A DNA stretch of 64,000 nt from Bacteroidota bacterium (GCA_038747545.1 JBCDJT010000004.1:810-64809); one strand, 5' to 3'. Positions 35,447-50,111 are shown, counted from the first letter of the stretch. Notes: generated by a model not told the origin, from the sequence alone. Numbers and translations are program-made.

Positions 35447-36025
35447 TCAGGCATCAGCTTCGGGCCGATCCTTCAGCAGCTGCCCCAGCCACGCCCGCGC
35501 CATGCGCCAGTCGCGCCGCACGGTGGGCACCGAGACGCCCAGCACCTCGGCGACTTCCTCGTGCGTGAGCCCGCCGAAGAAGCGGTACGTGACGACCTTG
35601 CTCTGCCGCTCGTTCCAGGCGGCCAGCCGCTCCAACGCCTCGTCTAGCGCGATCAGGTCGTCGTCGCGAAGGTGCCCAACGACCTGGTCGTCTTGAAACG
35701 TGACCGCGACCTGCCCGCCGCCGCGTTTAAGGGCGCGGCGCTTGTGCGCGTGGTTGACCAGGATGCGGCGCATCGAGATGGCGGCCATGCTGAAGAAGTG
35801 GGCGCGGTTCTGCCAGCTGATCTGTTCCAGCCCGATGAGCTTGAGGTAGGCCTCGTGGACGAGGCCGGTGGTGTTGAGCGTGTGCCCGGCCCGCTCGCCC
35901 TGCAGCTGCCGATGGGCGAGCTGCTGCAAGGCCTCGTACACCTGCGGCAGCAGCGCGTCCACGGCGGCGCGGTTGCCGTCCTTCATGTCCTGAAGCAGTT
36001 GCGTGACGTCGTGGGGGGAGTCCAT
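35447..36025 (-). CDS. ECF sigma factor (kinase-associated type), copy 2
   Basis: Reads MDSPHDVTQLLQDMKDGNRAAVDALLPQVYEALQQLAHRQLQGERAGHTLNTTGLVHEAYLKL...YRFFGGLTHEEVAEVLGVSVPTVRR. Lies 122 nt upstream of its kinase. Confidence 0.88.
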   Translation of the reverse strand: MDSPHDVTQLLQDMKDGNRAAVDALLPQVYEALQQLAHRQLQGERAGHTLNTTGLVHEAYLKLIGLEQISWQNRAHFFSMAAISMRRILVNHAHKRRALKRGGGQVAVTFQDDQVVGHLRDDDLIALDEALERLAAWNERQSKVVTYRFFGGLTHEEVAEVLGVSVPTVRRDWRMARAWLGQLLKDRPEADA

Positions 36026-36211
36026 CGGCAGCGAAGCACGTGGGGGTACGGAGCTAATAACGTCGGTTTTCGGCGTTTTCGAGAACAGTGTACACTTTTC
36101 TTCGGCCCCCGTTATCACTTTGGCCTGTGATTCCAGCCTTACGGGATGAGCGCAACCCCTTCACCCTGCGTCTTTCGCGTCCTCGATCACTTGATTTGAC
36201 TGGCTAGACCC

Positions 36212-37084
36212 ATGCTTGCTTTCGCCACACCGCTTCTCCGCCGTCCCTTCGCCTCCCGCTTCACCTGGTTGTGCGGCATACTCCTCCTCGTCTCCGCGTG
36301 CGACACCTTCAACAGCGACGCCGAATCCGAGGCGCCACTCCTCGCCAGCGCCTCGGCAATCAATAATGGCCTCGTCATCTCCGCCACCTTCGACCGCCCC
36401 ATCGATCCGGCCTCCCTGTCTGCCAGCGACTTCCAGGTGATCTCGGCGCTCGACAACGGACGGACCGGGCGGAGCACGCCCGTCTCGCTCACCTACATCG
36501 ACGGGCCCACGCCACGCGTCGACTTGGTCATGCGGAGCCCGGGCATCGGCAACGGTACCCACACGCTCCAGGCCGAGAACGTGACCGCGCCCAACAGTGC
36601 GGACGTCGCGTCGTCCACGACCACGTTCGACTACCGCTTCGTGGTCCAGACGCCCCGCTCGTTCATCGTGAGCGCGATTGTCGTCACCAACTTCCCCATG
36701 ACCAAGTCCAACGGTTCCACCTGGGACTGGGACCCCTTCGCCTCTACCCCACGCCGCCCCGACATCTACGTGCAGTTCCAGCGGTCAGCGGGCGGCGGCT
36801 TGCCGCTCTACATCTCCAACACGCGGAGCAACGTGACCAACGGACGCTACGACTTCACGCGGCCTGCCTCCCCGAACGACCCCAGCATCCCCTTCACCGC
36901 CGCCTACAGCACCGACTATCTGCTGAGTCTGGTGGATGACGACTTTGGGGGCAACGAGACGATGGTGCAGGCGCAGTTCACGTTCTCCAGCAAATACAAG
37001 CGCGACAACGCCACGACCGATGTGATCACCGTGAGCGGCAATCGGGGTTTCTCCGCAGAAATTCGCGGCACGTGGGTCTACTGA
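36212..37084 (+). CDS. Hypothetical lipoprotein (N-terminal Ig-like region)
   Basis: Lipobox in MLAFATPLLRRPFASRFTWLCGILLLVSAC. Contains LVISATFDRPIDPASLSASDFQV. Divergent from ECF sigma copy 2. Confidence 0.6.
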   Translation: MLAFATPLLRRPFASRFTWLCGILLLVSACDTFNSDAESEAPLLASASAINNGLVISATFDRPIDPASLSASDFQVISALDNGRTGRSTPVSLTYIDGPTPRVDLVMRSPGIGNGTHTLQAENVTAPNSADVASSTTTFDYRFVVQTPRSFIVSAIVVTNFPMTKSNGSTWDWDPFASTPRRPDIYVQFQRSAGGGLPLYISNTRSNVTNGRYDFTRPASPNDPSIPFTAAYSTDYLLSLVDDDFGGNETMVQAQFTFSSKYKRDNATTDVITVSGNRGFSAEIRGTWVY

Positions 37085-37099
37085 TCGTCTTCGGCGGCG

Positions 37100-40000
37100 T
37101 CACTTGAGCAGCACCATCCGCCCCGTCCGCACGGTGTTGGCGGCCTCCAACCGATACAGGTAGGTGCCGCTGGAGAGACGGCTGGCATCGAAGGTCACCG
37201 TGTGCCGACCGGCCGCGCGCGGACCATCCGCCAATACCTGCACCTCGCGGCCCATCAGATCGAACACGACGAGGCGCACCAGCCCCGCTTCAGGCAGCGC
37301 GTAGCCGATGGTGGTAACGGGGTTGAACGGATTCGGGTAGTTGGGCTGCAGCTCGACGGTCCGGGGCAGGGTGATCTCTTCGCGCGGATCGACCGCGACC
37401 ACGAGGGGGCGCGAGGCAAACGTGAAGGGGGCTGACCACGCGCCTCCCTCGCCCTGTGCCGCCACGCCGCGCACCCGCCAGTAATGCACCTGCTGGCTCA
37501 CCGCCAGGCTGTCGAGCGCGTAGCGTGTGCAGGTCAGTCCCTCGACGGCCCGGTGGATGTCGCCAAACCCGCGGTCCAGCGCGATCTCCAGGTCGTAGCT
37601 CGCCGCCTCGGGTAGCGCCCCCCATGTCAGCTCTACGCCGGGCCGGACCGACTGGGCACCGTCAGCGGGGAAGCTCAGGCCGGGCGGTGGCAACGGCGGC
37701 GGACCGCCCTCGCCAAAGCTGAACAAGCCCTGCGGCGTCACCTCGTCGGCGCAGGCGTAGAGGCGGCCTTCGCGCGTTTCGAGGCGGGTGTCGTGGGGCA
37801 CCCACAGCATACCCGTGGCCACGTGCTGCCGCACGATGACGACCTCGTCCGGTGCGTTCAGCCCTTCGGTGGTCAGGCAGAGCGTGGCTTGGGTTTGCCC
37901 ACTCACGTCGGGCAGGCCGAGGCGCCAGGCGCGAAGCACGGGCGTGGTGGGCTGCACCGCCTCGCCCGACGCGTTGAGCGCCACCTCGCCGGAGACCGTG
38001 CCCAGCGGCGGCGGCGCGTCGTAGGACGTCACGAACAGCGAGTCGGCATTGTGCTTGCCGAACCCTGGTAACTCGGCAAACACCTCGTCATCGAGTTGGT
38101 CGAACGGGACGCTGCGCGACTCCGCACGGTCGATGGTGCTGAAGCAGGCGCTGAACGGCCCGGTGCGTCCGGCCACGTCATCGGTGGCCGTCGCGGTGAG
38201 GCCCGTGTTGTTGCCCGGCGTGACGCTGAGGCGGAAGCGCCCCAGCCCCAGCCCGTTGGTTTGCATCGTGGTTGTTGCGAGGAGCGTTTCGCCTTCGGCC
38301 ACGCCTCGGCATGCGAGCGTGCCAAAGACCTGAACGTGGATGGTCTGGTTGGGCGGCCCCAGCACGGCGCCATCCAGCACCTGCGTGGTGTTCAGCACCG
38401 TGCTCACCTCGGTGTAGCCCAGCAGATCCACCATCGGGCGGCGCACCTCGATGGCGCTGGTCGAGAACGTGACGGGGTTGGTGGGCAGAATCCCGACGCG
38501 CTCTACACCCAGAATGTTGTTGCCCAAGATCACGGTGCCGCGCTCGCCGTCAACCTCCGCCCCATCGCCGACCACCACGACCCCAGTCCGGTAGTTGCGG
38601 ATTCGGTTGCTTCCCGTTGCGCCGTCGCCCAGCGTCCCTCCGATGCGCGTGTCCACTGCAGCGTGAATACTCACCGCCCGCTCTCCTCCGGGCGCCCCGA
38701 TGGAGGAGGCCTCGCCGAAGACGTTGCCGGTGATCACCGTGCCTTGTACCGGAAGCAGCTCGTCGCGTGGAGGATAGCTGCCGGGCCCTTCGAGCCGTAT
38801 GCCCATGTCATTGCGAGCCAGCTGGTTACCCAGTCCTTCTTCGGTGCCGCCGATGCGCGTGTTCGTGGCCCCAGGCCGCAAGACGATCCCGAACCGGTTT
38901 TGCTGCGCGCTCGGGAGGTCAATGAGTTCATTTCGACCGTCGCCGAAGACGTTGCCCTCAATCACGGTCTCCAACGTTGGCGCATCGCCGCCGCCGACGC
39001 GGATGCCAGTCTGCAAGCCGTAGAAGCTGTTGGGCAACCCGTTGGCGCCCCCACTAGACACACGCACGCGCTCCGTTCCGATAGCCACTACGCCGACGCC
39101 GTTCTTGTCGAACTGGTCAAACTCGTTGCGGCCTAGCCAGAGCGAGCGGCTGAGGAAGGTCGTGCCCGTGATGGTGGCCTCTTGGACATCGAACAGGCGG
39201 ATGCCCACCTTCTGGGTGGCTCCGAAGAACGCACCAGGCTCGCGGCACGCGCTGACCGTCATATCTGGCCCGATCACGACATCGGACAGGCGGTACAGGT
39301 CGATGCCCGCGTCGCGGCAGTTAGCCAGGGGAAAGCGGTCCCCCTCGTCCCGGAAGACGGCAGGGATGAGGACGTTGCGCACGCGAAGCGTAGACACCCG
39401 CGTCTCGGTGCGCGAATCGGTGAAGCTGAGGGTGCTTCGGGTGGGTGTCACCAGCACCGCTGACGGTATGCGGCCGTCGGCTTCGATGCCGCTTCCCGTG
39501 GCGTTCCCAAGCACCACCGCCGTGCTACCCGTCGCGCCGATCTGTGTGGACGCCGCGCCATAGACGACGATGTTGTCGATGCTGGCCCCTACATCAGGCG
39601 GGATAGCTACTGCGTCGAGCGACGTGCCGCGTATGAGCGTCACCGCCGGATCGATGCCGAAGAGCGTGGAGAGCACGCGGTTGCCCGTAGCCGGCAGGCC
39701 CTCGGCTCCGGCAATAGCCACGTCGGCGAAATAGCCGCCGATGATGTTGGAAAAGCCGGCTTCGCTGGACGTGGCGCGGCCCACGCTGTTGAACGAGGCG
39801 GCGCCCATAATCGCTACGCCTATCCGCGACGTGGAGCCCCTGGGCGGGCTCAGGCGACGGCTGAGATCGGTGCCCAGCGCGTTCCGATGCAGCACGTTGC
39901 CGTCGGCGGGCGCCTCGGCGTCTTCGGAGACGATGAGGATCTCGCCCTCGCGGTTGCCGCGGATGAACTGGTCCACAGGGCGGTTGGAGTTGGCGGGCTG

Positions 40001-42742
40001 GCCGACGGTGGTGTTGGAGGCCGACTCGATGAGGATGCCCCAGCGGTTGCCCGTTGTGCCCAACTCGTCGAAGGCACCGATGACGTTCTCGGAGAGCGTG
40101 TTGCCCGCCGCCGCGGCGCCCTTGACGTGGATGCCGATGCCCGTGTTACCCGCCACGGTGCTCGTGGTGACCGTGTGGTCGGGGCCTTCGATCAAGATAC
40201 CCGTCTGGTTGGCCGTTGCGTCGGCGCCGGGCAGGACGCCCACCACCGCGCACCGCACCGTAGCTTCGCGCGCACCAGCGGCGAGGTGGATGCCGGCCAC
40301 CGTGTTGCCCGCGATCAGGTTGGACAAGCATACCGCTTCGTCGTCCGGCCGGGGGACGGTGCCGATCTTGGCGTTGGCGCCCTCCGCCACGCGGATGCCT
40401 ACGCTGTTGTTCACCGCGCGCATGGAGTCGACTTGCGCATCGGCAGTGATCTGGAGGGCGGGGCCGTTGAAGTCGCGCAGCGTCAGCCCGCTCACCGAGA
40501 TGGGCGAGCCCGCCAACTGCAGCCCTGGCACCGTGCTGGTTGAGCCTTCGCCGCTGACCACGATGACAGGTCCGGCGGCAGGGCTGACGTAGCCGGGCTG
40601 GCTCGTTCCCTGGATCACGACGGGCCGCTCGATGGGCGGCAGGGGTGCCGGTCTGATCGTACAGACACCGTCGGAGCAGCCGCTGTCGTCAGCCGGGATG
40701 TCGAAGGTGATGAACCACGGATCGGTGCCGTCCTGGCCGTTGACGGCCTCGATGGCGGCGCGGAGCGTACACTGCTCGCCGTCCTCGGCGCGATCCACGT
40801 CGCAGACGTCCTCCGCGGCGCTGTCCGGGTGGTTGGCCTCATCGCCCGTCGAGTTGACGACGAGGATTTTGGGCAGGATGTCGAGGCGGGCGCACCCGAT
40901 GCTGGCGTCGTCACGCGCACCGCCCACGCCCGGCGGCGGCGCGGCTTGGTCCAGACTACAGTTCGACACCAGCTCCTCGATCCGCTGCCGCGTGCTGTCC
41001 TCCATGACCGCCTCGGCCTCCACCCGAGGCACGAACACGCGAACGTTCGACTCGACGCTGACCGCCTCGTGGATGAACAGCAGTTCCCCCGTAGAGTCGG
41101 GCTCCAATCGGTCGATGATGAGGTTTTCCCCGCGCGCGAAGCGCAGCGACCCCAGCTCGCTCAGGATGTCGATGCCGTCCTCGTTGCGCGGCACACGGAT
41201 GTTGACCAGCGGCAACGCGCCCGTGTTGAATACCTTCAACCGCACCCGCAACGAGTCGCCTATGGTGACGCGCAGCGTGTCGTCATCGGTGCTTGTGCCC
41301 CGTGTATCGCGCCGCTTCCCTGCTGCCTCCGGCACCACCAGCTCCAGGTCCAGCTCGTAACGCATCGCCGCCTCAGACGCCGCCAGGTTGGCGCGCCAGC
41401 CCTGGAGCTGTCCGCTCGGATTGATGGCGTTGCCCACGATCACGGTGCCGTCGTCACTCACGGCGGTAGCCTCGATGAGCCGCCAGCCCGTGAGGTCCAG
41501 GCCGAAGTCGTCGATCAGGACATCCTGCACGGCCCGCGAGCCCTGCTCGGGCGTCCAGATCGTCGCGACACGCATCCCCCTGAACGTACCCGAGACGTTG
41601 CCGTTGCTCGCTTGCTGGTTTCCGAAGATCTCGTAGCCTACAATCACGGTGCCGTCCGCGTTGGTGGCCATCGGGGTGGCACGGCCTTCGGTGAAGCCGT
41701 AGTCACGGGCAGGCGTGATGCGGGGCAGGATGGTCGTGGCTCCGTTCGCATACCGAGCGACGCGCTCGTCTAGGTCGAACTCTTGCTTGTAGTCTTGGCC
41801 AATCACCACCGACCCGTCGGCACTCACGGCAACCACCTGGAACGTCACATTCGGGATGGGAATGGCTTCCTGTGCGCCGTTTACGACACGCACGGGGGTG
41901 AAGCTCGTGGTGAGGCCGGCCACGCCCGCTACGACGCTTCCGTCATCGGACGCGTCAACGATGCGTAGGTCCTCGATGAACACCTTGTGGTGATTCTGGA
42001 ACTGACCGAAGCCCGGGAAGCCGTCGGCGTCTGAGAACGCAGGCCAGGAGCTGGGGTTGGTGCCCATGAGCGCCCCATCCACCCACCGGATGGGGTCGTA
42101 GATGTCACCCGTCTTGCCAGTGAACGCACTGCCGTAGAGGGCGAGCAGCTCGCCCTGGACAGTACGACCATCGGCCGAAATCGACAAGCCGCCGCCCACG
42201 ATCTCCCTGGGCTTCACGGCGCCAGCAGCGGCGCTCACCTCCGGCAGGGATAGCATCGTCCACTCGCCTCCGTTGAAGCTGTCCGTCGGGTCGATCGAAA
42301 AGATCGCCGGCTCCGGGTTCCTGATGAAGCTGCCATTGGTCCCATTGAAGCTCCTGCGGCAAGCCGAGCCGAACGCCTGAAACGGCGGGCTCTCGGACCG
42401 GCACTGGCGCGTCAGAATGTGGCGCCCGTCGGCAGACACCTCGATGGGGAAGACGCTGGAGATGAACCGCCGGATGGGTGTGACTGTGCCCGCGGCATCC
42501 GTCCAGTAGATCTCGTGGTTGTTGCTGCCCGTGGTGCGCAGCATCCCGCTCACCACGCTCCCGTCTGCCGACACAGCCTCGGCGCTAGACAAGTCGTAGG
42601 CGCCACTTGCGAGGTCACCCAAGGTCTCGAACGACTGAGCATACCCCGAGGGCACGAGCACCGCTGCAAGTAGACTGGCCAGGACGGGCCACGCATAGAC
42701 CAGCTTCGGCGACACGGCGGATAGGCGAGCGGCTTTGGACAT
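37100..42742 (-). CDS. 1880-aa T9SS-sorted surface protein: N-terminal HAF-like repeats, parallel beta-helix repeats, Fn3-like region, C-terminal sorting domain
   Basis: Signal peptide present. Recurrent ADGSVV(S/I)G / DDGTVIVGN-type repeats. CTLRAAIEAVN motif, then long GN..GI..-type beta-helix repeats. C-terminus is NYPNPFNPVTTIGYALP...YLYRLEAANTVRTGRMVLLK. Confidence 0.85.
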   Translation of the reverse strand: MSKAARLSAVSPKLVYAWPVLASLLAAVLVPSGYAQSFETLGDLASGAYDLSSAEAVSADGSVVSGMLRTTGSNNHEIYWTDAAGTVTPIRRFISSVFPIEVSADGRHILTRQCRSESPPFQAFGSACRRSFNGTNGSFIRNPEPAIFSIDPTDSFNGGEWTMLSLPEVSAAAGAVKPREIVGGGLSISADGRTVQGELLALYGSAFTGKTGDIYDPIRWVDGALMGTNPSSWPAFSDADGFPGFGQFQNHHKVFIEDLRIVDASDDGSVVAGVAGLTTSFTPVRVVNGAQEAIPIPNVTFQVVAVSADGSVVIGQDYKQEFDLDERVARYANGATTILPRITPARDYGFTEGRATPMATNADGTVIVGYEIFGNQQASNGNVSGTFRGMRVATIWTPEQGSRAVQDVLIDDFGLDLTGWRLIEATAVSDDGTVIVGNAINPSGQLQGWRANLAASEAAMRYELDLELVVPEAAGKRRDTRGTSTDDDTLRVTIGDSLRVRLKVFNTGALPLVNIRVPRNEDGIDILSELGSLRFARGENLIIDRLEPDSTGELLFIHEAVSVESNVRVFVPRVEAEAVMEDSTRQRIEELVSNCSLDQAAPPPGVGGARDDASIGCARLDILPKILVVNSTGDEANHPDSAAEDVCDVDRAEDGEQCTLRAAIEAVNGQDGTDPWFITFDIPADDSGCSDGVCTIRPAPLPPIERPVVIQGTSQPGYVSPAAGPVIVVSGEGSTSTVPGLQLAGSPISVSGLTLRDFNGPALQITADAQVDSMRAVNNSVGIRVAEGANAKIGTVPRPDDEAVCLSNLIAGNTVAGIHLAAGAREATVRCAVVGVLPGADATANQTGILIEGPDHTVTTSTVAGNTGIGIHVKGAAAAGNTLSENVIGAFDELGTTGNRWGILIESASNTTVGQPANSNRPVDQFIRGNREGEILIVSEDAEAPADGNVLHRNALGTDLSRRLSPPRGSTSRIGVAIMGAASFNSVGRATSSEAGFSNIIGGYFADVAIAGAEGLPATGNRVLSTLFGIDPAVTLIRGTSLDAVAIPPDVGASIDNIVVYGAASTQIGATGSTAVVLGNATGSGIEADGRIPSAVLVTPTRSTLSFTDSRTETRVSTLRVRNVLIPAVFRDEGDRFPLANCRDAGIDLYRLSDVVIGPDMTVSACREPGAFFGATQKVGIRLFDVQEATITGTTFLSRSLWLGRNEFDQFDKNGVGVVAIGTERVRVSSGGANGLPNSFYGLQTGIRVGGGDAPTLETVIEGNVFGDGRNELIDLPSAQQNRFGIVLRPGATNTRIGGTEEGLGNQLARNDMGIRLEGPGSYPPRDELLPVQGTVITGNVFGEASSIGAPGGERAVSIHAAVDTRIGGTLGDGATGSNRIRNYRTGVVVVGDGAEVDGERGTVILGNNILGVERVGILPTNPVTFSTSAIEVRRPMVDLLGYTEVSTVLNTTQVLDGAVLGPPNQTIHVQVFGTLACRGVAEGETLLATTTMQTNGLGLGRFRLSVTPGNNTGLTATATDDVAGRTGPFSACFSTIDRAESRSVPFDQLDDEVFAELPGFGKHNADSLFVTSYDAPPPLGTVSGEVALNASGEAVQPTTPVLRAWRLGLPDVSGQTQATLCLTTEGLNAPDEVVIVRQHVATGMLWVPHDTRLETREGRLYACADEVTPQGLFSFGEGGPPPLPPPGLSFPADGAQSVRPGVELTWGALPEAASYDLEIALDRGFGDIHRAVEGLTCTRYALDSLAVSQQVHYWRVRGVAAQGEGGAWSAPFTFASRPLVVAVDPREEITLPRTVELQPNYPNPFNPVTTIGYALPEAGLVRLVVFDLMGREVQVLADGPRAAGRHTVTFDASRLSSGTYLYRLEAANTVRTGRMVLLK

Positions 42743-42856
42743 GCTTTTCTGCTCCAGGGCGAGGCAAGTTGGACACGCATGCTATGGTATACGAGAGAAT
42801 ATAGCCTATGCACAAACGCTCAGGGCAGAACTGCACGCGTTTTGCTCCTCACCTCG

Positions 42857-42925
42857 TCAGCGCACCGTCTGCGCCACCGCGCCCGTCCCGGGGTGCTGCA
42901 GGATATGCGTAAAGCTGCCTTGGGG
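42857..42925 (-). pseudogene. Displaced 3'-terminal fragment of the Gfo/Idh/MocA gene, copy 1 (oldest, ~69 nt)
   Basis: Translates to GSFTHILQHPGTGAVAQTVR* versus [20 protein letters not shown] in the live gene. Starts at the stop codon TCAGC. Confidence 0.6.
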
Positions 42926-42939
42926 CCCTCGCACGCGTG

Positions 42940-43374
42940 TCAACCTGCAGGCAACCACGGGTTGACAAGCGAAATGCCGCAGCCCTCGAAGTCGGATGTG
43001 TTGCGCGTGGCAAGCACTGCCTGGGCTGTTGTGGCGATAGCAGCGATCATCATATCGACGGTGTCCGCGTGGAGCCCCTGTGACTCGCGCTTCGCCGAGA
43101 CCGGGCCACACGCATAGGCCGCTGCCTTGTCGAAAACGAGCAGACGCTCCGCGAAGGCCTCGTCGATGAAGGCCGAGAACCGCTCCTCCAACCCGCGCCG
43201 CCGCTTACCATCCGGCAGACGCATGAGGCCACGTTGGATCTCGGCAACAGTGATGCCGGTCGTCGCCAGTTCCAGTAGGTCTTGGGCTTCGAGCCACGCC
43301 GCGACACCTTTATTTGGCTTGGGCCGCATGAGTTCGGAGATGACGTTGGTATCCAGAATGATCATGTCAGCCAA
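42940..43374 (-). CDS. vapC: PIN-domain toxin VapC (FitB-like)
   Basis: Reads MADMIILDTNVISELMRPKPNKGVAAWL...HADTVDMMIAAIATTAQAVLATRNTSDFEGCGISLVNPW. Confidence 0.9.
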   Translation of the reverse strand: MADMIILDTNVISELMRPKPNKGVAAWLEAQDLLELATTGITVAEIQRGLMRLPDGKRRRGLEERFSAFIDEAFAERLLVFDKAAAYACGPVSAKRESQGLHADTVDMMIAAIATTAQAVLATRNTSDFEGCGISLVNPWLPAG

Positions 43375-43612
43375 AGTCGGCAGGATCGCGACGACTCGAC
43401 CGCTCAGGCAGGTCTAACTCCACGCCACCGTATGATCCGAAGTGTTTCTTCGCCAAGTCGAGAATGGGTACGGGCTCACTACCGTCGCCTACCGCTGCCT
43501 TCTGCAGCGCACGCCGCGCATAGGCCTCTAGCGACATGCCTGCCTGAGCAGCGCGTACACGCAAGGCCTCCTTAGTATGGGCAGAAAGCCCGCGAACGTT
43601 GATGTTGGGCAT
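43367..43612 (-). CDS. vapB: VapB/FitA-like antitoxin (ribbon-helix-helix type)
   Basis: Reads MPNINVRGLSAHTKEALRVRAAQAGMSLEAYARRALQKAA. Overlaps vapC by 8 nt. Confidence 0.85.
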   Translation of the reverse strand: MPNINVRGLSAHTKEALRVRAAQAGMSLEAYARRALQKAAVGDGSEPVPILDLAKKHFGSYGGVELDLPERSSRRDPADFG

Positions 43613-43696
43613 GAAATGGGGCCTGACGTGCGTCCAATGGATACAATTATTCCAACAGGCTCAAAGCATCTTGGATCCAAACCAGATCTGCCCCCG

Positions 43697-43859
43697 TCAG
43701 CTCATCGTCAGCGACACGGCGCCCGTCTCGGGGTCTTGCAGGATGCGCTTGAAGCTGCCGTCGGGCATGAGTTTATTTGATGACTACCTTGCCGTCGTGC
43801 ATCTCCTTCGTCACGGTGGTGCCGCCGCGCCAGTCGTCGATCTCCGCCAGCGCGACTTG
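43697..43859 (-). pseudogene. Displaced 3'-terminal fragment of the Gfo/Idh/MocA gene, copy 2 (frameshifted)
   Basis: Aligns to the live gene end. A 2-nt deletion turns ...VIKEELMPD into VIK-TAA. Two further internal deletions are present. Abuts the hicB stop. Confidence 0.85.
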
Positions 43860-44078
43860 TCATGCAGCGCGGCGCACCTCGACGTACCCCACCTGAGACT
43901 GAGGCGCTGGTATTGCCTCTCCTTCCTCGGCGAGCCCGTCTAGGTGAAACTCTATCGCCTCGACGATTAGACGACGCACCTCTTGCTCGCTCTCACCGAC
44001 AGCGACACAGCCAGGCAAGTCAGGCACGTAAGCTCCGAAGCTGGTCGGACCTGGTTCGATAATCACCGCATATCGCAT
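43860..44078 (-). CDS. hicB: HicB-family antitoxin
   Basis: Reads MRYAVIIEPGPTSFGAYVPDLPGCVAVGESEQEVRRLIVEAIEFHLDGL. Confidence 0.88.
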   Translation of the reverse strand: MRYAVIIEPGPTSFGAYVPDLPGCVAVGESEQEVRRLIVEAIEFHLDGLAEEGEAIPAPQSQVGYVEVRRAA

Positions 44079-44087
44079 GGGCTTCCT

Positions 44088-44276
44088 CTACTCGTTTAGT
44101 CCAGCCTGTTTGAAAATGCTCTTGAGTGTACCGGTAGGAATATCGAGGCTCGGCTTGCCAGCCACAGTTACTGTACCCGGCTTGGTAGGGTGCTTGAATT
44201 GGCGATGGCTGCCTCGGGTTCTCGCCAGATACCAGCCCTCGCGCGTGAGTACCTTGATAACCTCTCGAACCTTCAT
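44088..44276 (-). CDS. hicA: HicA mRNA-interferase toxin
   Basis: Reads MKVREVIKVLTREGWYLARTRGSHRQFKHPTKPGTVTVAGKPSLDIPTGTLKSIFKQAGL. Confidence 0.9.
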   Translation of the reverse strand: MKVREVIKVLTREGWYLARTRGSHRQFKHPTKPGTVTVAGKPSLDIPTGTLKSIFKQAGLNE

Positions 44277-44356
44277 GGCGGCAAGATACCACCCATGGCT
44301 CAGTTATGCTGCGCAGCTTTGCGCCGCTTGGTCTCTCGCAACAGGATGAATGTTCG

Positions 44357-44609
44357 TCAGCTCACTGTCTGCGACACGGCGCCTGTTTCGGGGTCTTGCA
44401 GAATGCGTTTGAAGCTGCCGTCGGGCATCAGCTCTTCTTTGATGACCACCTTGCCGTCGTGCATCTCCTTGGGCACCTCGATCCGCTCGGTGGTGCCGCC
44501 ACGCCGGTCGTCGATCTCCACGGGCTCCCACTTGCGCGACTTGGCCGAGCGGTAGCAGGCGTTGACGATGTAGCCATCGTGGAAGGTTTCCATCGGCTCT
44601 TTACTGTCG
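44357..44609 (-). pseudogene. Displaced 3'-terminal fragment of the Gfo/Idh/MocA gene, copy 3
   Basis: Hand alignment shows 19 substitutions (3 non-synonymous: Y>H, W>R, A>E) plus an in-frame 12-nt deletion (IIDA) relative to 48921..49190. Still an open frame (track ORF 44357..44680). Confidence 0.9.
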
Positions 44610-44661
44610 TACAAGCCCTCAGCAAAACGGGACAAAGAAATGCCGAAAATGAGCGATGGTT

Positions 44662-45594
44662 TTAGGCAGTAAGCGTCCAAAGATCCCGCAGTATCAAGGT
44701 CTCGATTCCAGCTATACGAGCCGATAGAGCGCCATCGCTTTCCATTTCGGGGCGAGGATCTACAAAGTAGACGCCATCAAGCGAGCCCAGAGCTACACTA
44801 TACCCGAGAAAGTGGTTACGCTTGAACGTAGACGCGATACCAAAGATTGACCCGGAGCGCTTCGCACGCTGCACGTCATGTAGGAAGACGCCGACAACGG
44901 GGACGTCTCGTCCAACAAGCGCTGAAATCATCTTCTTATCGAGGAAAACCTTGTCGATCCTGTCTTTGCTTGTGGTCTTGACTGAACCGATCACTTCACC
45001 TGGTAGCAGTGGGGTCTCACCTGTCCAGACGACGCCGTTTTTTGAGAAAACAAGGTCCAGTTCGTACTTCATGGTGAACCCGTCACCCCCTGGCACGGGA
45101 AGCACAACGGTGCGCGGCTCGCAGGTCAACCCGGTTTCCTGAACAAGAAGAAGGATCAGCCGCTCAAACACCTGCCCGACTCGCTTTCTCGCCCGGTTTG
45201 CATTGCGAAGTGAGTCTGCGACGCACCCCACGGCTTGTTGGGCCGTGTAAAGCACGCGTCGCATCTCGCCCGACCGTTTATATGAGTCAACAGGACTTAG
45301 CTGGTTGTTGGCAGCCGTGTTGATCGCGTCGAGCATTCGGTTAAATGCCGCTTTGAATTCATCCGGTCGCCTGATCCAGAGATCAAAGTTCAGCGGTCGA
45401 GTGATTGCTCGTTGATACTGTGCACCGAACTGGTAGAAGCGATATCGGGAATCATTCGGAGCATGGATGAGCGTTGGTTGCTCTGCGTCCACATATTCGA
45501 GGAAGGCTGCCCCAAACAGCCGGTAATGGTTGAGAACCGTGAATCCTGAAAGATCGATCAGTCCTTCTTGAAGGGGAGCAAGTGGTCCGTTCAT
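44662..45594 (-). CDS. Putative type II restriction endonuclease (PD-(D/E)xK-like)
   Basis: 310 aa. Start overlaps the MTase stop (ATGA). Candidate catalytic region is YELDLVF...GSVKTTSKDR. Family not recognised. Lower G+C than the flanks. Confidence 0.6.
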   Translation of the reverse strand: MNGPLAPLQEGLIDLSGFTVLNHYRLFGAAFLEYVDAEQPTLIHAPNDSRYRFYQFGAQYQRAITRPLNFDLWIRRPDEFKAAFNRMLDAINTAANNQLSPVDSYKRSGEMRRVLYTAQQAVGCVADSLRNANRARKRVGQVFERLILLLVQETGLTCEPRTVVLPVPGGDGFTMKYELDLVFSKNGVVWTGETPLLPGEVIGSVKTTSKDRIDKVFLDKKMISALVGRDVPVVGVFLHDVQRAKRSGSIFGIASTFKRNHFLGYSVALGSLDGVYFVDPRPEMESDGALSARIAGIETLILRDLWTLTA

Positions 45595-46592
45595 CGGATC
45601 GCCTTCCTCCGCTCCTCATTTGCACGATCATAGGCAATCCACTTCTCGACGCTCCATCGTTCGACTCGTTCGAGACGGTCAATCGCCCAGGTTGAATATT
45701 CAGGCGTCAGGTCACAGCCAGACCAACGGCGGCCGAGCTGTTCTGCAACTACGGGCGTAGTGCCCGAACCAAAGAAGGGGTCAACTACGAGATCTTCAGG
45801 ATTCGATGACGCTAATACAAGGCGCCGAATCAGTTCCTCTGGTTTCTGCGTCGGATGTGGCGTCTTTTCATGCATTCCGTTGCATGTTGTAGGTATCTCT
45901 ATCACATCTTTTGGTTTGGCCCCTCGTGGGTGAGGCGTCCAGTGATCTTTCCGCTTCTTCCCATTTCCGTACTGGCTTGTCTTTGCCTGGGGATGGGAGG
46001 GGTACTTCAGCGTGTGCGCCCCATAGGGGATACGTACGTCATCTGTGTTGAACGTGAACCGTTTGCTCTTGCGAAAGTGGAGAATGCTCTCGTGCGAGCG
46101 TCCCCAGTCATTACGCAAGTTCGCTTTGTTTTTGTAGTGCCACACAAGCCAGCGGCACCCCGTGAAGTAGCGCGAAGCTGGATGCCGAAGATCAGCTAGG
46201 ATTTCCGAAAAGCCACAGACATACAGCGTCCCTTGTGGCGTCAGCACACGAGAAGCCTGTTCGATCCATGCCAACGACCATTCGACATAGGCCTGCTGCG
46301 ACTCAAAGGTGTCCCACTCTGCCTTCTTGATGCTGTAGGGCGGGTCGGCCACGATCAGATCTACGCTGGCGTCAGGCAAGGTATTCAACCAAGCAGCGGC
46401 ATCGGCTACCCATAGCGCGCCGTTGGGATGTTCGTAGACCTTGACAGGAGACTCAGCCTTACGAACTTCGGGCAGATCAAATTTTGTCCCACGTGGGTCA
46501 GGCGGAGGAAACAGACTGGGTTCGTTATCAGGCTTTTTGGCTCGCGCGAAGGATCGGGCAGGTTCTCTGACTTTCGCTTGCTCCATCGGCAT
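45591..46592 (-). CDS. DNA methyltransferase, beta class (motif IV DPPY before motif I FGSGTT); probably N6-adenine
   Basis: 333 aa. Motif LIVADPPYSIKKAEWD is followed, near the C-terminus, by VVDPFFGSGTTPVVAEQLGRRWSGCD. Confidence 0.88.
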   Translation of the reverse strand: MPMEQAKVREPARSFARAKKPDNEPSLFPPPDPRGTKFDLPEVRKAESPVKVYEHPNGALWVADAAAWLNTLPDASVDLIVADPPYSIKKAEWDTFESQQAYVEWSLAWIEQASRVLTPQGTLYVCGFSEILADLRHPASRYFTGCRWLVWHYKNKANLRNDWGRSHESILHFRKSKRFTFNTDDVRIPYGAHTLKYPSHPQAKTSQYGNGKKRKDHWTPHPRGAKPKDVIEIPTTCNGMHEKTPHPTQKPEELIRRLVLASSNPEDLVVDPFFGSGTTPVVAEQLGRRWSGCDLTPEYSTWAIDRLERVERWSVEKWIAYDRANEERRKAIR

Positions 46593-46674
46593 TGCTTGGG
46601 TTCATTCGGAGAAGACCTCAGAATATAGCCAGGACTGCTCTGCTTGTGCCCCCACACCAGAAATTGCTCGATAG

Positions 46675-46905
46675 TCAGCTCACCGTCTGCGACACAGCGC
46701 CCGTCTCGGGGTCTTGCAGGATGCGCTTGAAGCTGCCGTCAGGCATGAGTTCTTCTTTGATGACCACCTTGCCGTCGTGCATCTCCTTGGGCACGGCGAT
46801 GCGCTCGGTGGTGCCGCCGCGCCAGTCGTCGATCTCCACGGGCTCCCACTTGCGCGACTTGGCCGAGCGGTAGCACGCGTCGATGATGGCGTTGACGATG
46901 TAGCC
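46675..46905 (-). pseudogene. Displaced 3'-terminal fragment of the Gfo/Idh/MocA gene, copy 4 (youngest)
   Basis: 231 nt aligns to 48921..49151 with 8 substitutions, all synonymous. The encoded 76 aa are identical to the live C-terminus. Confidence 0.95.
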
Positions 46906-47010
46906 ACAATAACGTCTCGCAATACTGCTGCGCGGCCTGCCCGCAGGCAAGCGAAGTATACCTACCTGTCAACCCGTGACAGCAGCAACACCTTGTTTGA
47001 CGGTGGGGGC

Positions 47011-48705
47011 CTACGAAGACCCACCCGGCAGCTTCTCCAACAAGCTGCGAATCAGTGAGTCGACAGGACCACGACGCGCAGCATTTAGAGCCTCGGAAGG
47101 CGCTTCGACCACGGCGTCTGCCACGATGCGCTTGGCGTCGTGCTCCACATTGTCTGACCATGTCTTGCCCTGCGCGGTCATCGTTTGCTTAAGTCGGCTA
47201 CTCCACTTCCCCTTACCCTTCCATTGCTTCCCGACCAGCTTGACCCCGAAGTGTTGCTCGATCTCCGTTCTGTATACCTGCGCGTCGAGCATGTCTTCTA
47301 GTTCGGCATCCGAGCCACCCGGCGGCGAGGTCACATGAAACTCGGATGGCGTCAGCAGGCCGTCAGCTTGCGCTTTGGTCACGGCCGACCGGCCAGCGTC
47401 ATCGTTGTCTAAAAAGCAATGGTACTCGGTGATGGCATTCCTGAGCTCCGAGAGCTTATAGCCGAGCTTTCCGCCACCACCGATCGAATCGATCACGAGG
47501 GTGTTCTCAGAAAGGGCAGATGCCAGAACCGGCGACTCCTGAGCTAGCACGGCACCTAGTATTCGAACATCAGAGAGGCCCTCCACGACCAGTACGACCT
47601 CGGCGTGCCGCAGATTGTCGGAAGCCCTCACCCCGAGGGCCTCGCGGATCTCGTCAATGCTGGTAGCTGGTTTGGCCAGACTCGCTTCGACCAAGATGTT
47701 CGAAGCAACATCAACTCTGTCGGCAAAGACCGGCGAGTGTGTGGTAATAACGATCTGGTGCTCCGCGGCCAGGTCACGGAGGACGCCCCGAAGCCGATGA
47801 ATTGCGCTGGGATGCAGGTGTGATTCGGGCTCTTCAAGTCCGAGGATCAGATGTCTGCCCTCTGTCGCCGTACCGCGAAGGAGGCCAATCGCAGCGAGAC
47901 TCTGTACTCCGTCTCCCTTTCGCCCGAGGCTGGTGGCCGTGCCGTCGTCAACCACCACGTCGATTGAGCGTCGGATAGCCCGATACCGGTCGTCCTCGTC
48001 GAGCCTGACCTTGACCTCTTGGACAGATGGCATGAACCCCTGAAGCGACTCTCTGATCACCTGTCCCAATGAATCTAGCACGGGCTTCTGCAGCTCCGTG
48101 ATCTTCGCGATAGCTGCGGCGTAGTCTGGGTCCTTCTCAAGGGCACGTAGGTCTCGGGCTACCATGTCTCGCACCACCGATATGGCGGCTTCGGCTGTCC
48201 TAACGGCCGGGATGTATGTAAAGACCACGCGCCCCCCGATGAACTCGGCGACCTTCTCCCGCTGACTGTTGAGAGCTTTCGAGCCTGGTCCCTGCTTGAT
48301 GACCTTGAAGAACGGGTCGGATCTTCCCATTCGGATCTCAACAGGAAGCTCGTCACTGATCTTGCTGCCGACCTCCCTTTGGAAGTCTTCCTGCTCTGCT
48401 TGATCAAGTTTGAAGCGGAGGCGAAAGACGCTTTCCCCATTCGGGGCGGAGTCCTGCAGCGACACAGGGAAGTCACGCTCCCAGTTGTAGCGGCGGCGAC
48501 GGAGTGAGGCGCCGCGAATGCGGCCTTTGATTATTCGGACTCGTGCGAGTTGTTCGACTACCTCCATCGCCGCGGACAGCCCAGCGAGGAGGTTTGACTT
48601 GCCCTCATTGTTCTTCCCGATCAGGACGGTCGACGCCGACATCGGCAGGCGATGTGCCTTGATGATGCTTCGGTACTTGCTCGCGGAGAAGGAAGTCAGC
48701 TGCAT
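47011..48705 (-). CDS. Stand-alone OLD-family nuclease (ABC-type ATPase + Toprim)
   Basis: 564 aa. Walker A is GKNNEGKS. Also LILGLEEPESHLHPSAIHRL and VITTHSPVF. Toprim motifs are VVLVVEGLSDVRIL and FLDNDDAG. Confidence 0.85.
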   Translation of the reverse strand: MQLTSFSASKYRSIIKAHRLPMSASTVLIGKNNEGKSNLLAGLSAAMEVVEQLARVRIIKGRIRGASLRRRRYNWERDFPVSLQDSAPNGESVFRLRFKLDQAEQEDFQREVGSKISDELPVEIRMGRSDPFFKVIKQGPGSKALNSQREKVAEFIGGRVVFTYIPAVRTAEAAISVVRDMVARDLRALEKDPDYAAAIAKITELQKPVLDSLGQVIRESLQGFMPSVQEVKVRLDEDDRYRAIRRSIDVVVDDGTATSLGRKGDGVQSLAAIGLLRGTATEGRHLILGLEEPESHLHPSAIHRLRGVLRDLAAEHQIVITTHSPVFADRVDVASNILVEASLAKPATSIDEIREALGVRASDNLRHAEVVLVVEGLSDVRILGAVLAQESPVLASALSENTLVIDSIGGGGKLGYKLSELRNAITEYHCFLDNDDAGRSAVTKAQADGLLTPSEFHVTSPPGGSDAELEDMLDAQVYRTEIEQHFGVKLVGKQWKGKGKWSSRLKQTMTAQGKTWSDNVEHDAKRIVADAVVEAPSEALNAARRGPVDSLIRSLLEKLPGGSS

Positions 48706-48920
48706 AGGCCCCTTGAGTTTTTCACGTCCTGAAGCACCGCCTAACTAGTATAGATGTATGCAGCGTGCGAATATAACACTACGCTTTGCACCTACAAAGT
48801 TCAGTCTATCCAGGAGTTTAACCTAGTTGGCTGAATTTAATCAGCATATTTGCAACTTTCCTACAGGGGCCAAAGCTAATGCTGCGAACGGAATCACCCT
48901 GCGGCATGGCGTGTGCGCTC

Positions 48921-50111
48921 TCAGCTCACGGTCTGTGACACGGCGCCCGTCTCGGGGTCTTGCAGGATGCGCTTGAAACTGCCGTCAGGCATGAGTTCTT
49001 CTTTGATGACCACCTTGCCGTCGTGCATCTCTTTGGGCACCGCGATGCGCTCGGTGGTGCCGCCACGCCAGTCGTCGATCTCGACGGGCTCCCACTTGCG
49101 CGACTTGGCCGAGCGGTAGCACGCGTCGATGATGGCGTTGACGATGTAGCCGTCGTAGAACGTTTCCATGGGCTCTTTGCCGTCGTCGATACTGTCGAGC
49201 ATGTCGGTGAACATGTCGGTGTAGCCGAGGGCGGCTACCTCGTCGCCGACGGGGAAGAGCCAGCCGTTATCGACCTCGACCTTCTCGGCCACGTAGCCGC
49301 CTTGTCCGCCTTTGGTGAACATCTCGAAGCCGGTGCGCAGCCAGTGGTTGAGCCAGATGGTGCCTTGTGTGCCCGAGACCTCGTCGCGCAGGTCCATGCC
49401 GCCGTGAAACGCCCAGCTCACCTCGAACTGCCCCACCGCGCCGCTCTCAAACTTGACGAGCCCGACGGCGTGGTCCTCAGCTTGGATCGGATGCACGAGC
49501 GTGTCGGCCCAGCACATGACCTCGACGGGGCGATTGCCTTTGCCGACGAAGTTGCGGATGATCTCGACGCAGTGGCACCCCATGTCGATCATGGCGCCGC
49601 CGCCTGCCTGGTTGTGGTCCCAGAACCACGCGCTGTGCGGCCCCGGATGCGTCTCGCGCGAGCGCACCCACAGCACATCGCCGATGGCGCCGTTTTGCAC
49701 GGAGGCGATGGACTTGAGGGTCTTGGGCGTGTAGCAGAGGTCCTCGAGGTAGCCGTGGAAGACGCCCGCCTTTTCCACCATGTCAAGCATGCGCTTGGCC
49801 TCCTCGGCGGTGCGGCCCAGCGGCTTCGTACACAGGATCGCCTTGCCCGCTTCGGCGCAGAGGCGCACGCATTCCTCGTGGACGATGTTAGGCAGGCCGA
49901 TCACGACCACGTCGGTGTCGGGGTGTTCGATGGCGGCTTTGAGGTCGTCGGTGGCGTGGCCGATGTCCCACGTCTTGGCGAACTCGGCGGCGCGTTCAGC
50001 GCGGCGCGAGTAGACCACGGCCACCTCGTCGCGGCTGCGCTTGCCGTGCAGCGTCATCGTGTAAAACATGCCGATCAGCCCGGTGCCGAGCATCGTGATT
50101 TTATGTCCCAT
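48921..50111 (-). CDS. Gfo/Idh/MocA-family NAD(P)-dependent oxidoreductase (intact target gene of the cassette array)
   Basis: 396 aa. Rossmann N-terminus [17 protein letters not shown]..., then CTKPLGRT and the typical C-terminal alpha/beta domain. Confidence 0.9.

Follow-up and report, generated by a model that had tools for sequence, protein, structure and literature searches.

Layered gene ends and cassettes beside an oxidoreductase gene

The window (the whole 64,000-nt stretch analyzed) comes from an uncultured marine Rhodothermales-like bacterium. It contains an intact minus-strand gene for a 396-aa Gfo/Idh/MocA oxidoreductase (48921..50111; Pfam GFO_IDH_MocA and C-terminal domains), the final gene of a conserved block whose upstream synteny is shared with the relatives L001, L091, and L094. 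The last 266 nt of this live gene (48921-49186) recur downstream as four truncated copies, termed c4, c3, c2, and c1, so that five co-oriented gene ends are present, at essentially the positions given by a sequence-only reading of the window. A 23-nt repeat motif had four matches in the window, with none expected from shuffles, and no other long direct repeats of this kind occurred elsewhere in the 64 kb. The truncated copies separate units of 0.6-2.2 kb that consist of bare ORFs with margins of 0-105 nt.

The cargo of these units likewise lies on the minus strand, and the families first proposed for it (OLD, MTase+REase, HicAB, and VapBC) held up in Pfam, PADLOC, and NCBIfam searches. A 215-nt spacer (48706..48920) leads from the live stop codon to cassette 4, the newest, which is a single OLD-family ATPase/nuclease-like defence gene (47011..48705; PADLOC Old best match 6.2e-27; Pfam AAA_21, AAA_15, and DUF2813) with a 105-nt tail (46906-47010). 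Cassette 3 (44662..46592), with an 82-nt leader and a 51-nt tail, comprises a type II MTase gene (45591-46592; Pfam N6_N4_Mtase; PADLOC MTase_II) overlapping an REase gene (44662-45594; PADLOC REase_II, E = 1.6e-52). Cassette 2 (43860..44276) encodes the HicA toxin (44088-44276; Pfam HicA_toxin 1.5e-23) and HicB antitoxin (43860-44078; Pfam HicB_lk_antitox 1.6e-12), and cassette 1 (42940..43612) encodes a VapB-like RHH antitoxin (43367-43612; Pfam FitA-like_RHH; NCBIfam VapB) and a VapC toxin with a PIN domain (42940-43374; Pfam PIN; NCBIfam VapC). The G+C content was 0.54-0.61 in the cargo, 0.64 in the oxidoreductase gene, and 0.67 in the T9SS gene past c1; the contrast that spot counts had indicated was real, but less pronounced than they implied.

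The displaced ends, all on the minus strand, decayed monotonically with distance from the gene, in keeping with the proposed serial insertions at one gene end with the newest nearest to it. c4 (46675..46905; 231 nt, live -231 to stop) is intact in frame and differs from the live end by eight mismatches, all synonymous; the source MAG annotates it as a 91-aa hypothetical protein. c3 (44357..44610; live -266 to stop) has an in-frame 12-nt deletion and, on recounting the 19 substitutions (3 non-synonymous) first reported, 21 mismatches (16 synonymous and 4 non-synonymous codons). c2 (43697..43859; live -187 to stop), which abuts the HicB stop codon, carries a 2-nt deletion that shifts the frame and creates a TAA, a 12-nt deletion, and more small gaps near its 5' end. 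c1 (42857 to ~42919-42933; 42857..42925) is a stub of ~63-69 nt with ~74% identity and many amino-acid changes. The 5' boundaries are sharp but variable: -231, -266, -187, and ~-66 for c4 to c1, and ~-9 for a 9-nt remnant, c0, described below. Every copy includes the stop codon, as claimed, but the copies do not end exactly at its TCA: 0-8 nt of the spacer (possibly ~25 nt in c4) are still recognizable, and homology fades a few nucleotides past the stop, the point where selection on the ORF ends.

Logan contigs of SRR22824304, produced by a different assembler from possibly identical underlying reads, were 100% identical to window positions 48960-46876 and 46272-44528. They end within the repeats and cover three junctions, from the live end to OLD, from OLD to c4, and from the REase to c3; contig L093 was 100% identical across both OLD junctions, and L102 reproduced the REase-c3 junction. 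The longest exact run common to any two gene-end copies was 68 nt. These results confirm that the stacked arrangement of gene ends and cassettes is real.

The oldest layer and the ancestral junction

The array had been taken to end at c1. Comparison with the relative L091 showed that it is larger, with a fifth block extending ~10 kb past c1 and the ancestral junction at ~32787. In L091, the oxidoreductase gene is directly followed by DUF2805 and sulfatase genes, which is the empty allele that had been predicted. These genes correspond to window positions 32459-32787 (DUF2805) and 29158-32458 (sulfatases), and L091 11183-11509 aligns with window 32787-32459 at 82%. Because nothing intervenes in L091, the entire region 32788-48920 represents inserted DNA. 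The junction (32705..32787, minus strand) consists of the gene-end remnant c0, GTGAGCTAA (~32779-32787), which now provides the stop codon of a kinase gene, and the ancestral intergenic spacer, whose match at the junction had z = 6.9 and through which the DUF2805 gene (32459-32704) is reached.

The oldest inserted layer (32788..42856, minus strand), which is missing in L091, carries a T9SS-sorted giant beta-helix protein (37100-42742), an ECF sigma factor (35447-36118), and a Ser/Thr kinase-TPR protein (32784-35369), all assigned by Pfam on the minus strand, and a plus-strand ORF of 290 aa with no assigned identity (36212-37084). The cargo is thus not exclusively of the immunity or addiction type, contrary to the initial description. 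In L094, the upstream synteny was retained and the downstream region was again different; since the downstream regions of L091 and L094 differ, there is no conserved right-hand arm in the clade. The collections searched contained only two close relatives, the empty allele and an L001 contig that ends 50 nt past the stop codon; neither a donor bearing one cassette beside the gene nor presence/absence variation of individual cassettes was found in these collections.

Origin of the displaced ends

Two lines of sequence comparison suggest that the displaced ends look like alleles rather than decayed local duplicates. The eight c4 differences, every one of them synonymous, belong to the first of these. 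Among the branch-specific changes of c3, six of nine were synonymous and three non-synonymous, where 22-27% synonymous is expected from random hits (p ~0.015). The polarized synonymous excess is moderate (p ~0.004-0.015), and the conservative pairwise null stands for c3 (16/20 codons synonymous vs 0.635 expected). The divergence of c3 from the live end is about that of another species' orthologue. The branch-specific changes of c2 (two synonymous and six non-synonymous, stop included) are consistent with neutral decay. As for the spacers, the first ~46 nt after the live stop codon match the DNA that follows the orthologue in L001, which belongs to another species with ~90% nt identity (34/46 identical, z = 9.5); the live spacer has a G+C content of 0.48 overall, dropping from ~+57 on. 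Between the c4 spacer and the live-end spacer there is no relationship (z = -0.9), whereas a local target duplication that took in the spacers would have left one. The proposal that a gene end arrived with every unit thus receives moderate support.

No tyrosine or serine recombinase, transposase, tRNA, tmRNA, known RNA (Rfam) family, or attC-sized tail was found within the 64 kb, in agreement with the sequence-only reading, and at 0-105 nt the cassette tails are too short to accommodate attC. Searches of viral, phage, and plasmid collections returned no matching unit. The nearest homologues elsewhere (OLD, 90% aa; R-M, 83% aa) have only the ORFs in common with the window, with no shared att-like flank, and lie between unrelated local direct repeats. 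These are present in three copies in L092 (9703-9859, 11759-11826, and 14995-15150), and in L098 (6906-6977 and 8944-9005) they take in the final ~9 codons of an adjacent gene and a hairpin (z = 10). A trans-mobilized cassette system, one of two mechanisms originally considered, found no support here; the other, in which the gene end serves as a portable homology arm, fits better.

We tentatively favour, at a little under an even chance, additive integration of fragments from related genomes, each comprising gene end, spacer, and cargo, through either a single crossover or one-sided homologous recombination combined with an illegitimate event. Relatives would bear differing cargo directly 3' of the same oxidoreductase gene, and an incoming donor fragment would run from within the gene, past the stop codon and donor spacer, into donor cargo. 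In a recipient with no match to the right of the gene, two-arm replacement would be impossible; integration would use a single arm because no conserved right-hand flank exists. The fragment may re-circularize and enter by a RecA single (Campbell-type) crossover in the gene end, or homology-facilitated illegitimate recombination (HFIR) may place the illegitimate joint inside the resident gene end. Either route would leave the live gene intact, with its end partly donor-derived and the new cargo adjoining, while the resident gene end, cut at the fragment or joint position, would be displaced outward with all older cargo. The present stack would then reflect five rounds. The exact runs between copies were 68, 51, and 38 nt, and runs of this length are sufficient for RecA pairing. 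RecA acting on the direct repeats could also release a cassette as a circle of gene end plus cargo, the very substrate that the next integration would require. In an E. coli HFIR screen, most products were single crossovers of re-circularized, partly degraded molecules, which left 109-950 bp of the lacZ end in duplicate (PMC3240628).

Several observations count against such homology-anchored integration, among them the missing donor and the merely moderate synonymous excess noted above. No recombination breakpoint was visible within the live gene, and no flanking repeat was found at the homologous cassettes in L095-97 and L100. GAC|GGC marks two of the four 5' boundaries, a post hoc observation that could hint at sequence-specific cleavage. 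The account also takes cargo already beside the donor gene as given, and five insertions at one site with none elsewhere in the 64 kb are what a site-specific system would predict as well.

An unlikely alternative, though more probable than those that follow, is true insertion with long target duplication, in which each cassette inserted after the resident stop codon and duplicated the last 66-266 nt of the resident gene, possibly through filled-in widely staggered breaks or replication template switching. The synonymous differences would then stem from subsequent homologous recombination that replaced the live gene with another allele. The small inserts, the lack of mobility genes, and repeats of >30 bp that may overlap gene 3' ends agree with the published definition (PMC2853133); in L098 and L092, the same R-M and OLD families lie between different local repeats; and a shared proximal boundary near the stop with variable distal ones fits a fixed break with variable re-entry. 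Moreover, c4 and the live end are mutually closest (8 differences vs 13-15 to L001). However, the c3 branch changes are enriched for synonymous ones, the sequence just past the live stop resembles native L001 downstream DNA rather than a foreign cassette end, and in L092 the cassette-adjacent repeat copy is more diverged than the distant one. Target duplication also needs an additional allelic-replacement step per insertion and has no established mechanism.

Tandem accretion of site-specific elements at the gene 3' end, with an attP bearing the replacement end, would make the units decayed, CIME-like remnants without an integrase, or minimal cassettes mobilized in trans by an integrase whose gene lies elsewhere in the genome; we consider this improbable. 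One gene end was struck five times, every unit restores the ORF, the same first 50 nt follow the stop in L001 as if from the same element end, and the logic is identical to that of tRNA, tmRNA, and fda-type islands and CIME accretion (PMC5704250). On the other hand, neither the cassettes nor the 64 kb contain a recombinase, the five distinct 5' boundaries demand five crossover specificities, and the narrow ORF margins would require four or five independent, precise losses of an integrase module. The homologous cassettes in unrelated repeats and the lack of a matching mobile unit argue in the same direction. Finally, chaining of single-cassette strain variants through the gene-end repeat into a stack absent from any genome is very improbable: although the source is a metagenome-assembled genome and both the related L001 MAG contig and the Logan contigs break in or just past the gene end, an assembler cannot invent junctions between cargo and truncated ends (two of these, and that from the live end to OLD, recurred at 100% with the second assembler), the copies differ in length and sequence beyond their short exact runs, and c2 and c1 have decayed too far to pass as the live end, so that their links to adjacent cargo are physical.

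Relation to known systems

The sequence-only reading had not recognized the locus as a described system, but two precedents exist. Insertion of R-M units with long target duplication was described by Nobusato et al. (2000) and Furuta, Abe & Kobayashi (2010) (PMC2853133), and we regard the locus as a case of it, itself mechanistically unexplained in the literature and here serial, with OLD and TA cargo. Both involve a compact, low-G+C defence unit without a mobility gene and long variable direct repeats (46-506 bp there vs 63-266 nt here) that occur once in the empty allele and may extend over a gene 3' end. The present locus differs in its five layers at one site, in carrying OLD, HicAB, VapBC, and a 10-kb non-defence block besides R-M, and in copies that appear to be different alleles, not duplicates of one target. 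The second precedent is CIME accretion, in which integrase-less units alternate with copies of the 3' end of a protein-coding gene, as in the ICESt1 family at fda (PMC5704250). There too, newcomers integrate at a gene-restoring repeat and the cargo can be R-M. However, CIMEs are decayed ICEs/IMEs of several kb that have a defined att core and related partners carrying an integrase, whereas the units here are 0.6-2.2 kb of bare ORFs with boundaries that differ per unit and no integrase or conjugation remnant.

Core defence hotspots such as cDHS1 of P. aeruginosa, for which transfer via flank homology has been proposed, also hold no mobile-element genes (PMC10250203). They resemble this locus in pinning a variable defence region to core genes with no recognizable mobile element responsible, but are conserved on both sides and have not been reported to carry scars, in contrast to one conserved flank and a scar per acquisition here. 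Integron arrays share small, co-oriented, promoterless-looking cassettes, often TA, with the newest by a fixed site; unlike them, the array has no IntI, attI, or attC, its tails are 0-105 nt, and its separators are host gene-end copies. In Williams' sublocation work, Dehalococcoides ssrA islands, and tycheposons, displaced target 3' fragments reportedly divide cargo blocks with the newest adjoining the intact gene, the same layout as here. Island arrays at tRNA or tmRNA genes have been reported for Dehalococcoides (PMC3146451) and Prochlorococcus (bioRxiv 10.1101/2020.12.28.424599); the target here is protein-coding, with no tRNA, tmRNA, or tyrosine recombinase.

Single-crossover insertion-duplication and HFIR (PMC3240628, with its references Prudhomme 2002 and de Vries & Wackernagel 2002) match the locus in one-sided homology without a dedicated recombinase and in foreign DNA flanked by a duplicated, truncated anchor piece (109-950 bp in experiments). 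They differ in being laboratory events on engineered substrates, and classical HFIR yields a deletion, not a duplication. To our knowledge, neither has been demonstrated as a natural route that builds defence hotspots. The present findings suggest that the modules entered by ordinary homologous recombination without a dedicated integrase, and on this reading the locus would be an insertion hotspot free of recombinases, lying where a conserved gene block ends.

Copies of the oxidoreductase gene end and their cargo

Repeat search and alignments confirmed the observation, made in the sequence-only reading, that the 3' end of the Gfo/Idh/MocA oxidoreductase gene is repeated downstream, and five co-oriented copies were found. 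The live gene end (48921-49186, minus strand) is followed on the same strand by four displaced, truncated copies, named from the newest to the oldest: c4 at 46675-46905, c3 at 44357-44610, c2 at 43697-43859 and c1 at 42857 to about 42925. These repeats are 231, 254, 163 and about 66 nt long, respectively, and thus direct repeats of >30 bp flank the inserts; the longest exact run common to any two copies is 68 nt. Counted back from the stop codon of the live gene, c4 starts at -231, c3 at -266, c2 at -187 and c1 at about -66, and a further remnant (c0) at about -9, so that the 5' boundaries vary; the junctions are sharp. A 23-nt motif of the repeat had 4 matches in the window against 0 expected, and no other comparable repeat was found anywhere in the window.

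Between successive copies lies exactly one compact module: an OLD-family ATPase, a type II MTase with its REase, HicA/HicB, and an RHH antitoxin with a PIN-type VapC. The units are short (0.6-2.2 kb, <20 kb), and searches of their ORFs with Pfam, PADLOC and NCBIfam gave no mobility gene. R and M genes occur together in one unit only (MTase 45591-46592, REase 44662-45594), the others holding OLD, HicAB and VapBC. The G+C content of the cargo is 0.54-0.61, whereas that of the flanking genes is 0.64-0.69 and that of the window 64.4%. A promoter and terminator scan of the array gave nothing above shuffled expectation.

An NCBI MAG labelled 'Bacteroidota bacterium' (locus tags AAGJ10_, e.g. AAGJ10_01355 and AAGJ10_01365) encodes proteins identical to the oxidoreductase, the 91-aa ORF of c4, the OLD-like protein and the REase. 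In a collection of 15 billion proteins, the 90%-identity cluster of the oxidoreductase contains only three genomes, namely the source and two relatives, L001 (JBCCMF010000082) and L091 (BAAHRN010000007, 'Rhodothermales bacterium'). The gene of L001 is 98% identical to that of the window in amino acids and about 88-92% in nucleotides, and that of L091 about 80-86% in nucleotides. The next relative, L094, has an oxidoreductase with 79% amino acid identity.

In L091, DUF2805 and two sulfatase genes directly follow the oxidoreductase gene, which has a single end and the ancestral downstream region. These genes align with window positions 32459-32787 (DUF2805) and 29158-32458 (sulfatases), and the alignment begins 9 nt before the L091 stop codon. 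The same 9 nt (GTGAGCTAA) now terminate an 861-aa Ser/Thr-kinase-TPR gene in the window. Since the L091 gene directly abuts the ancestral downstream region, all of 32788-48920 is inserted relative to L091, and by this comparison the array is larger than first described. The empty site with a single repeat copy in L091 covers the region as a whole, not cassette by cassette. The oldest layer (32788-42856) carries the kinase, an ECF sigma factor, an unknown ORF and a 1880-aa T9SS-sorted protein. In L094 the upstream synteny is kept and the downstream genes are different again, so that L091, L094 and the window have no conserved right flank in common. The comparison of these three loci identifies the stop codon as a synteny breakpoint with one conserved flank.

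Several further features of the region were observed. Two diverged paralogous triads of an ECF sigma factor, a Ser/Thr kinase with TPR repeats and a giant T9SS-sorted protein are present, one in the conserved region (22372-28941, plus strand) and the other forming the oldest inserted layer (32784-42742, minus strand). Their kinase domains scored strongly against PADLOC PD-T4-6 models, which is probably a generic kinase match. A palindromic element of ~75-105 nt lies between the GntR and SIS genes at 51034-51139, with arms (51049-51079/80-51110) that are 81% complementary and nested in 51034-51056/51117-51139. Its recurrence at 697-772 of the window and at two sites in L001 (4692-4784 and 8980-9085) makes it resemble a dispersed repeat of the REP or MITE kind. 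Inside the oxidoreductase gene, 150 nt (49442-49591) are 100% identical to L001, against 89-96% in adjoining stretches; the window and L001 lineages may have recombined here recently, or the segment may simply be conserved. The oxidoreductase is 70-74% identical in amino acids among MAGs labelled Poribacteria, Chloroflexota/Anaerolineae and Rhodothermales (L002-L080), many of whose isolate names apparently point to sponge-associated communities. This level of identity suggests cross-phylum spread of the oxidoreductase gene itself.

Divergence of the gene ends and their spacers

To compare the copies, differences from the live end were classified by codon. c4 differs at 8 of 231 positions, all synonymous, and c3 shows 21 differences (16 synonymous, 4 non-synonymous codons) and a 12-nt in-frame deletion. 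The L001 orthologue has 15 differences (14 synonymous, 1 non-synonymous codon). For random substitutions, 22-27% would be expected to be synonymous here. The changes were then polarised using the other copies and two orthologues, giving 6 synonymous and 3 non-synonymous changes on the c3 branch (p = 0.015), 3 and 0 on the live branch, and 1 and 0 on the c4 branch. The older c2 branch had 2 synonymous and 6 non-synonymous changes including a stop, the pattern of a dead copy. The synonymous excess on the polarised branches suggests that c3 gained much of its divergence while within a working gene, and probably c4 did likewise.

The 46 nt after the live stop codon align with the post-stop sequence of L001 (34/46, z = 9.5). 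The spacer after the live end is unrelated to that after c4 (z = -0.9), and the first ~24 nt after c4 weakly resemble the L091 spacer. Among the spacer pairs, those of the live end with L001 and of the 32.7-kb position with L091 alone were significant; c4/c1 and c4/L091 were marginal. The similar lengths of 72-84 nt had raised the idea that each copy is followed by a spacer of ~80 nt homologous over its full length to the ancestral intergenic region, and this was rejected.

These data bear on the possibility that the repeats are true duplications of the resident target, which we consider unlikely. Among described phenomena, insertion with long target duplication comes closest; in it, small R-M inserts without mobility genes lie between repeats of 46-506 bp, which in some cases overlap gene 3' ends (PMC2853133). 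Such R-M units have been on record since 2000 with no established mechanism (PMC2853133), and the present locus shares with them the short insert, the lack of a mobility gene, repeats of >30 bp and the empty site in L091. Duplication of a resident target, however, could not easily put the native downstream sequence of another species beside the live gene, whereas an imported unit of gene end, spacer and cargo would do so naturally. The synonymous excess and the L001-like spacer together argue for an allelic origin of the repeats, on statistics that are moderate. The allele pattern would also arise if a target duplication were followed by allelic replacement of the live gene; sliding identity against L001 and L091 revealed no clear step marking a recombination breakpoint within the live gene.

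The L001 contig breaks off 50 nt past the stop codon (L001 11189-11238), almost exactly where the G+C content of the window spacer (48864-48920) falls, at about +57. Such a contig end would be expected from strain-level variation in the cargo that this population carries downstream.

Searches for recombination functions and related cassettes

No tyrosine or serine recombinase and no transposase was found in the array or the 64-kb window by Pfam searches of likely ORFs, which were picked by length and third-position G+C and covered 1-25.4, 29-51.9 and 60.3-64 kb. ORF 25513-28941 was left out, and 52-60 kb were judged via synteny with L091, whose precomputed Pfam annotation shows like gene types. 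Outside the array, the scanned ORFs were housekeeping, metabolic and T9SS genes. Neither a cognate integrase nor remnants of ICE/IME modules were detected in the array or the 64-kb window, ARAGORN found 0 tRNA/tmRNA genes in the window, and Rfam had no match there. Within the 64-kb window, the absence of integrase, transposase and tRNA in or beside the array thus held as first read from the sequence. A tRNA/tmRNA island was ruled out by the ARAGORN and Rfam results, and a known RNA by the latter. The tails from each cargo stop codon to the next gene-end copy (105, 51, 0 and about 14 nt) are too short for attC, and with no integrase found, an integron was rejected as well. The locus is thus an array without the defining features of tRNA/tmRNA island arrays or integrons.

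Site-specific accretion at the gene end is still less probable than duplication. Gene-end copies bound every unit, which is the architecture of CIMEs, and CIME accretion at gene 3' ends follows the same logic, but it needs integrases and att cores (PMC5704250), which are absent in the array. No common att core or crossover position was found across the units, only GAC|GGC, noted post hoc, at two junctions. This motif lies exactly at 2 of 4 5' boundaries (46905/46906 and 42919/42920), and the c3 boundary is 5 nt upstream of a third site; the repeat terminates at TGAC|G, and four GACGG sites were seen by eye within the last ~270 nt of the gene. As a cleavage motif it was considered too weak, since it was present at 2/4 boundaries, was spotted post hoc and may be due to chance. 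Xer-dependent modules (IMEX, pdif) have 28-bp dif-like XerC/XerD sites at their borders; at the boundary here, the only sequence resembling a palindrome is GTGAGCTGAC, made up of the final 10 nt of the gene and one further base, in which 8/10 positions are self-complementary as read by eye. Across homologous cassettes, no cassette-borne att-like sequence is conserved.

That the array is an assembly chimera is very improbable, because two Logan contigs, from a second assembly of run SRR22824304, are 100% identical to the window at 48960-46876 and 46272-44528 and so reproduce the junctions live end/OLD, OLD/c4 and REase/c3 with another assembler.

Free units of gene end and cargo, which the sequence-only reading had proposed to look for, did not turn up in the viral, phage or plasmid collections. 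The repeat motif had no match in viral contigs, and the whole array matched only 57 nt of VapC in plasmids and nothing in phages. An exact-motif scan of metagenome contigs returned 10 loci, none related to the window. Gene-end duplicates were found neither in L094 nor downstream of 79 more distant orthologues (70-74% amino acid identity; Poribacteria, Chloroflexota and Rhodothermales), and the cassette tails and spacers had no match among the other sequences compared. Look-ups by exact protein gave no record for the oxidoreductase, the MTase or HicB.

Homologous cargo was found at other loci. The closest OLD homologue (90% amino acid identity, L092; ENA ERZ25072988 contig_28) is similar to the window in nucleotides over the ORF only (48715-47023). 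It lies in a stack of unrelated context (9703-15150) with a different local repeat, in the order repeat A (9703-9859), OLD homologue, partial repeat B (11759-11826), M78 peptidase with Multi_ubiq and ThiF/E1-like genes, and repeat C (14995-15150). Repeat C is 87% identical to A over 157 nt, and B, although adjacent, has diverged further than the distant C. The closest R-M homologues (82-83% amino acid identity) likewise have only the ORFs in common with the window. In L098 (JBCDKM010000004, 6906-9005; another Bacteroidota MAG, likewise detected in run SRR22824304), the MTase and REase genes are inserted convergently just past a 164-aa gene and are bracketed by a repeat of 65-72 nt (z = 10). 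This repeat contains a hairpin and the final nine codons of that neighbouring gene (PGIALRVRL*, with PGLSLRVRL* in the displaced copy). Only the hairpin, not the gene-end portion, is found again at further intergenic sites in the locus. No flanking repeat was present with the OLD homologue in L095-97 or with the R-M genes in L100. Bracketing by local gene-end repeats is thus recurrent, not universal, and a flanking direct repeat as a general trait of these cargo families was ruled out.

A separate arrangement was observed downstream of the orthologous oxidoreductase gene on a Poribacteria chromosome (L017, OZ244616, 9808-12492). The last 249 nt of a 244-aa ORF, PIN-like by eye, occur a second time just upstream of that ORF with 94% identity and form a 78-aa ORF of their own. 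Copies of a 146-nt repeat (89%) lie on either side of the segment that comprises the oxidoreductase gene and the 244-aa ORF.

Proposed integration by one-sided homology and its implications

Additive integration of donor fragments via gene-end homology alone would best explain the locus, and we hold this tentatively, at a confidence just short of even. It is suggested by the fixed anchor gene, the sharp and variable distal boundaries, homology fading where ORF selection ends and the proximal position of the newest unit. The allele-like ends, the lack of homology on the right-hand side and the absence of any recombinase add to this. The incoming DNA would be homologous to the recipient on one side only, which would fit the unconserved right flank and the allele-like ends; no donor was found. 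A donor fragment would re-circularise and enter by a single crossover at the gene end; alternatively, homology-facilitated illegitimate recombination (HFIR) would form an illegitimate joint within the resident gene end. The re-circularised single-crossover route has direct experimental precedent in E. coli, where most recombinants from an HFIR screen were single crossovers of partly degraded, re-circularised DNA that left 109-950 bp of the lacZ end in duplicate (PMC3240628). The direct repeats would further let RecA remove a cassette as a circle with one gene end, corresponding to the 'virus-like cycle' that Furuta et al. put forward for R-M units without evidence (PMC2853133).

A self-perpetuating, recombinase-free cycle, a 'homology-arm integron', is a more speculative extension that we regard as doubtful. 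In it, circles made up of gene end, spacer and defence gene would be freed by recombination between the repeats and, after transfer, would enter any related genome again through one RecA crossover at that gene, always landing beside the live gene and stacking.

The locus is not categorically new. The interpretation in the sequence-only reading is supported in part: of its two views, the gene end as a portable homology arm is favoured, and the description as an undescribed system was overstated in light of insertion with long target duplication. What is new is the five-fold serial stacking at one protein-coding gene end and the extension to OLD and TA cargo. The data further suggest, as a new element, that 'duplicated' targets are alleles from different lineages, and hence a concrete, testable mechanism. 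Core defence hotspots without mobile-element genes pose a related problem, and how they are built has explicitly been called unresolved (PMC10250203).

The locus can be read as a five-layer stratigraphy in which each acquisition left a datable scar, and the scars appear allele-like and from different lineages. This record points to ordinary homologous recombination, anchored on one side, as the process that built the array, an idea testable by population genomics of the clade and by transformation experiments. If it is correct, many 'target duplications' beside defence genes would not be duplications at all, and small defence and TA genes could spread among relatives without mobile-element machinery. 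If the homology-arm cycle also holds, it would provide the mechanism that is lacking for Kobayashi's 'long target duplication' and for defence hotspots free of integrases, and communities would share a pool of exchangeable immunity and addiction modules tied to particular core-gene ends.
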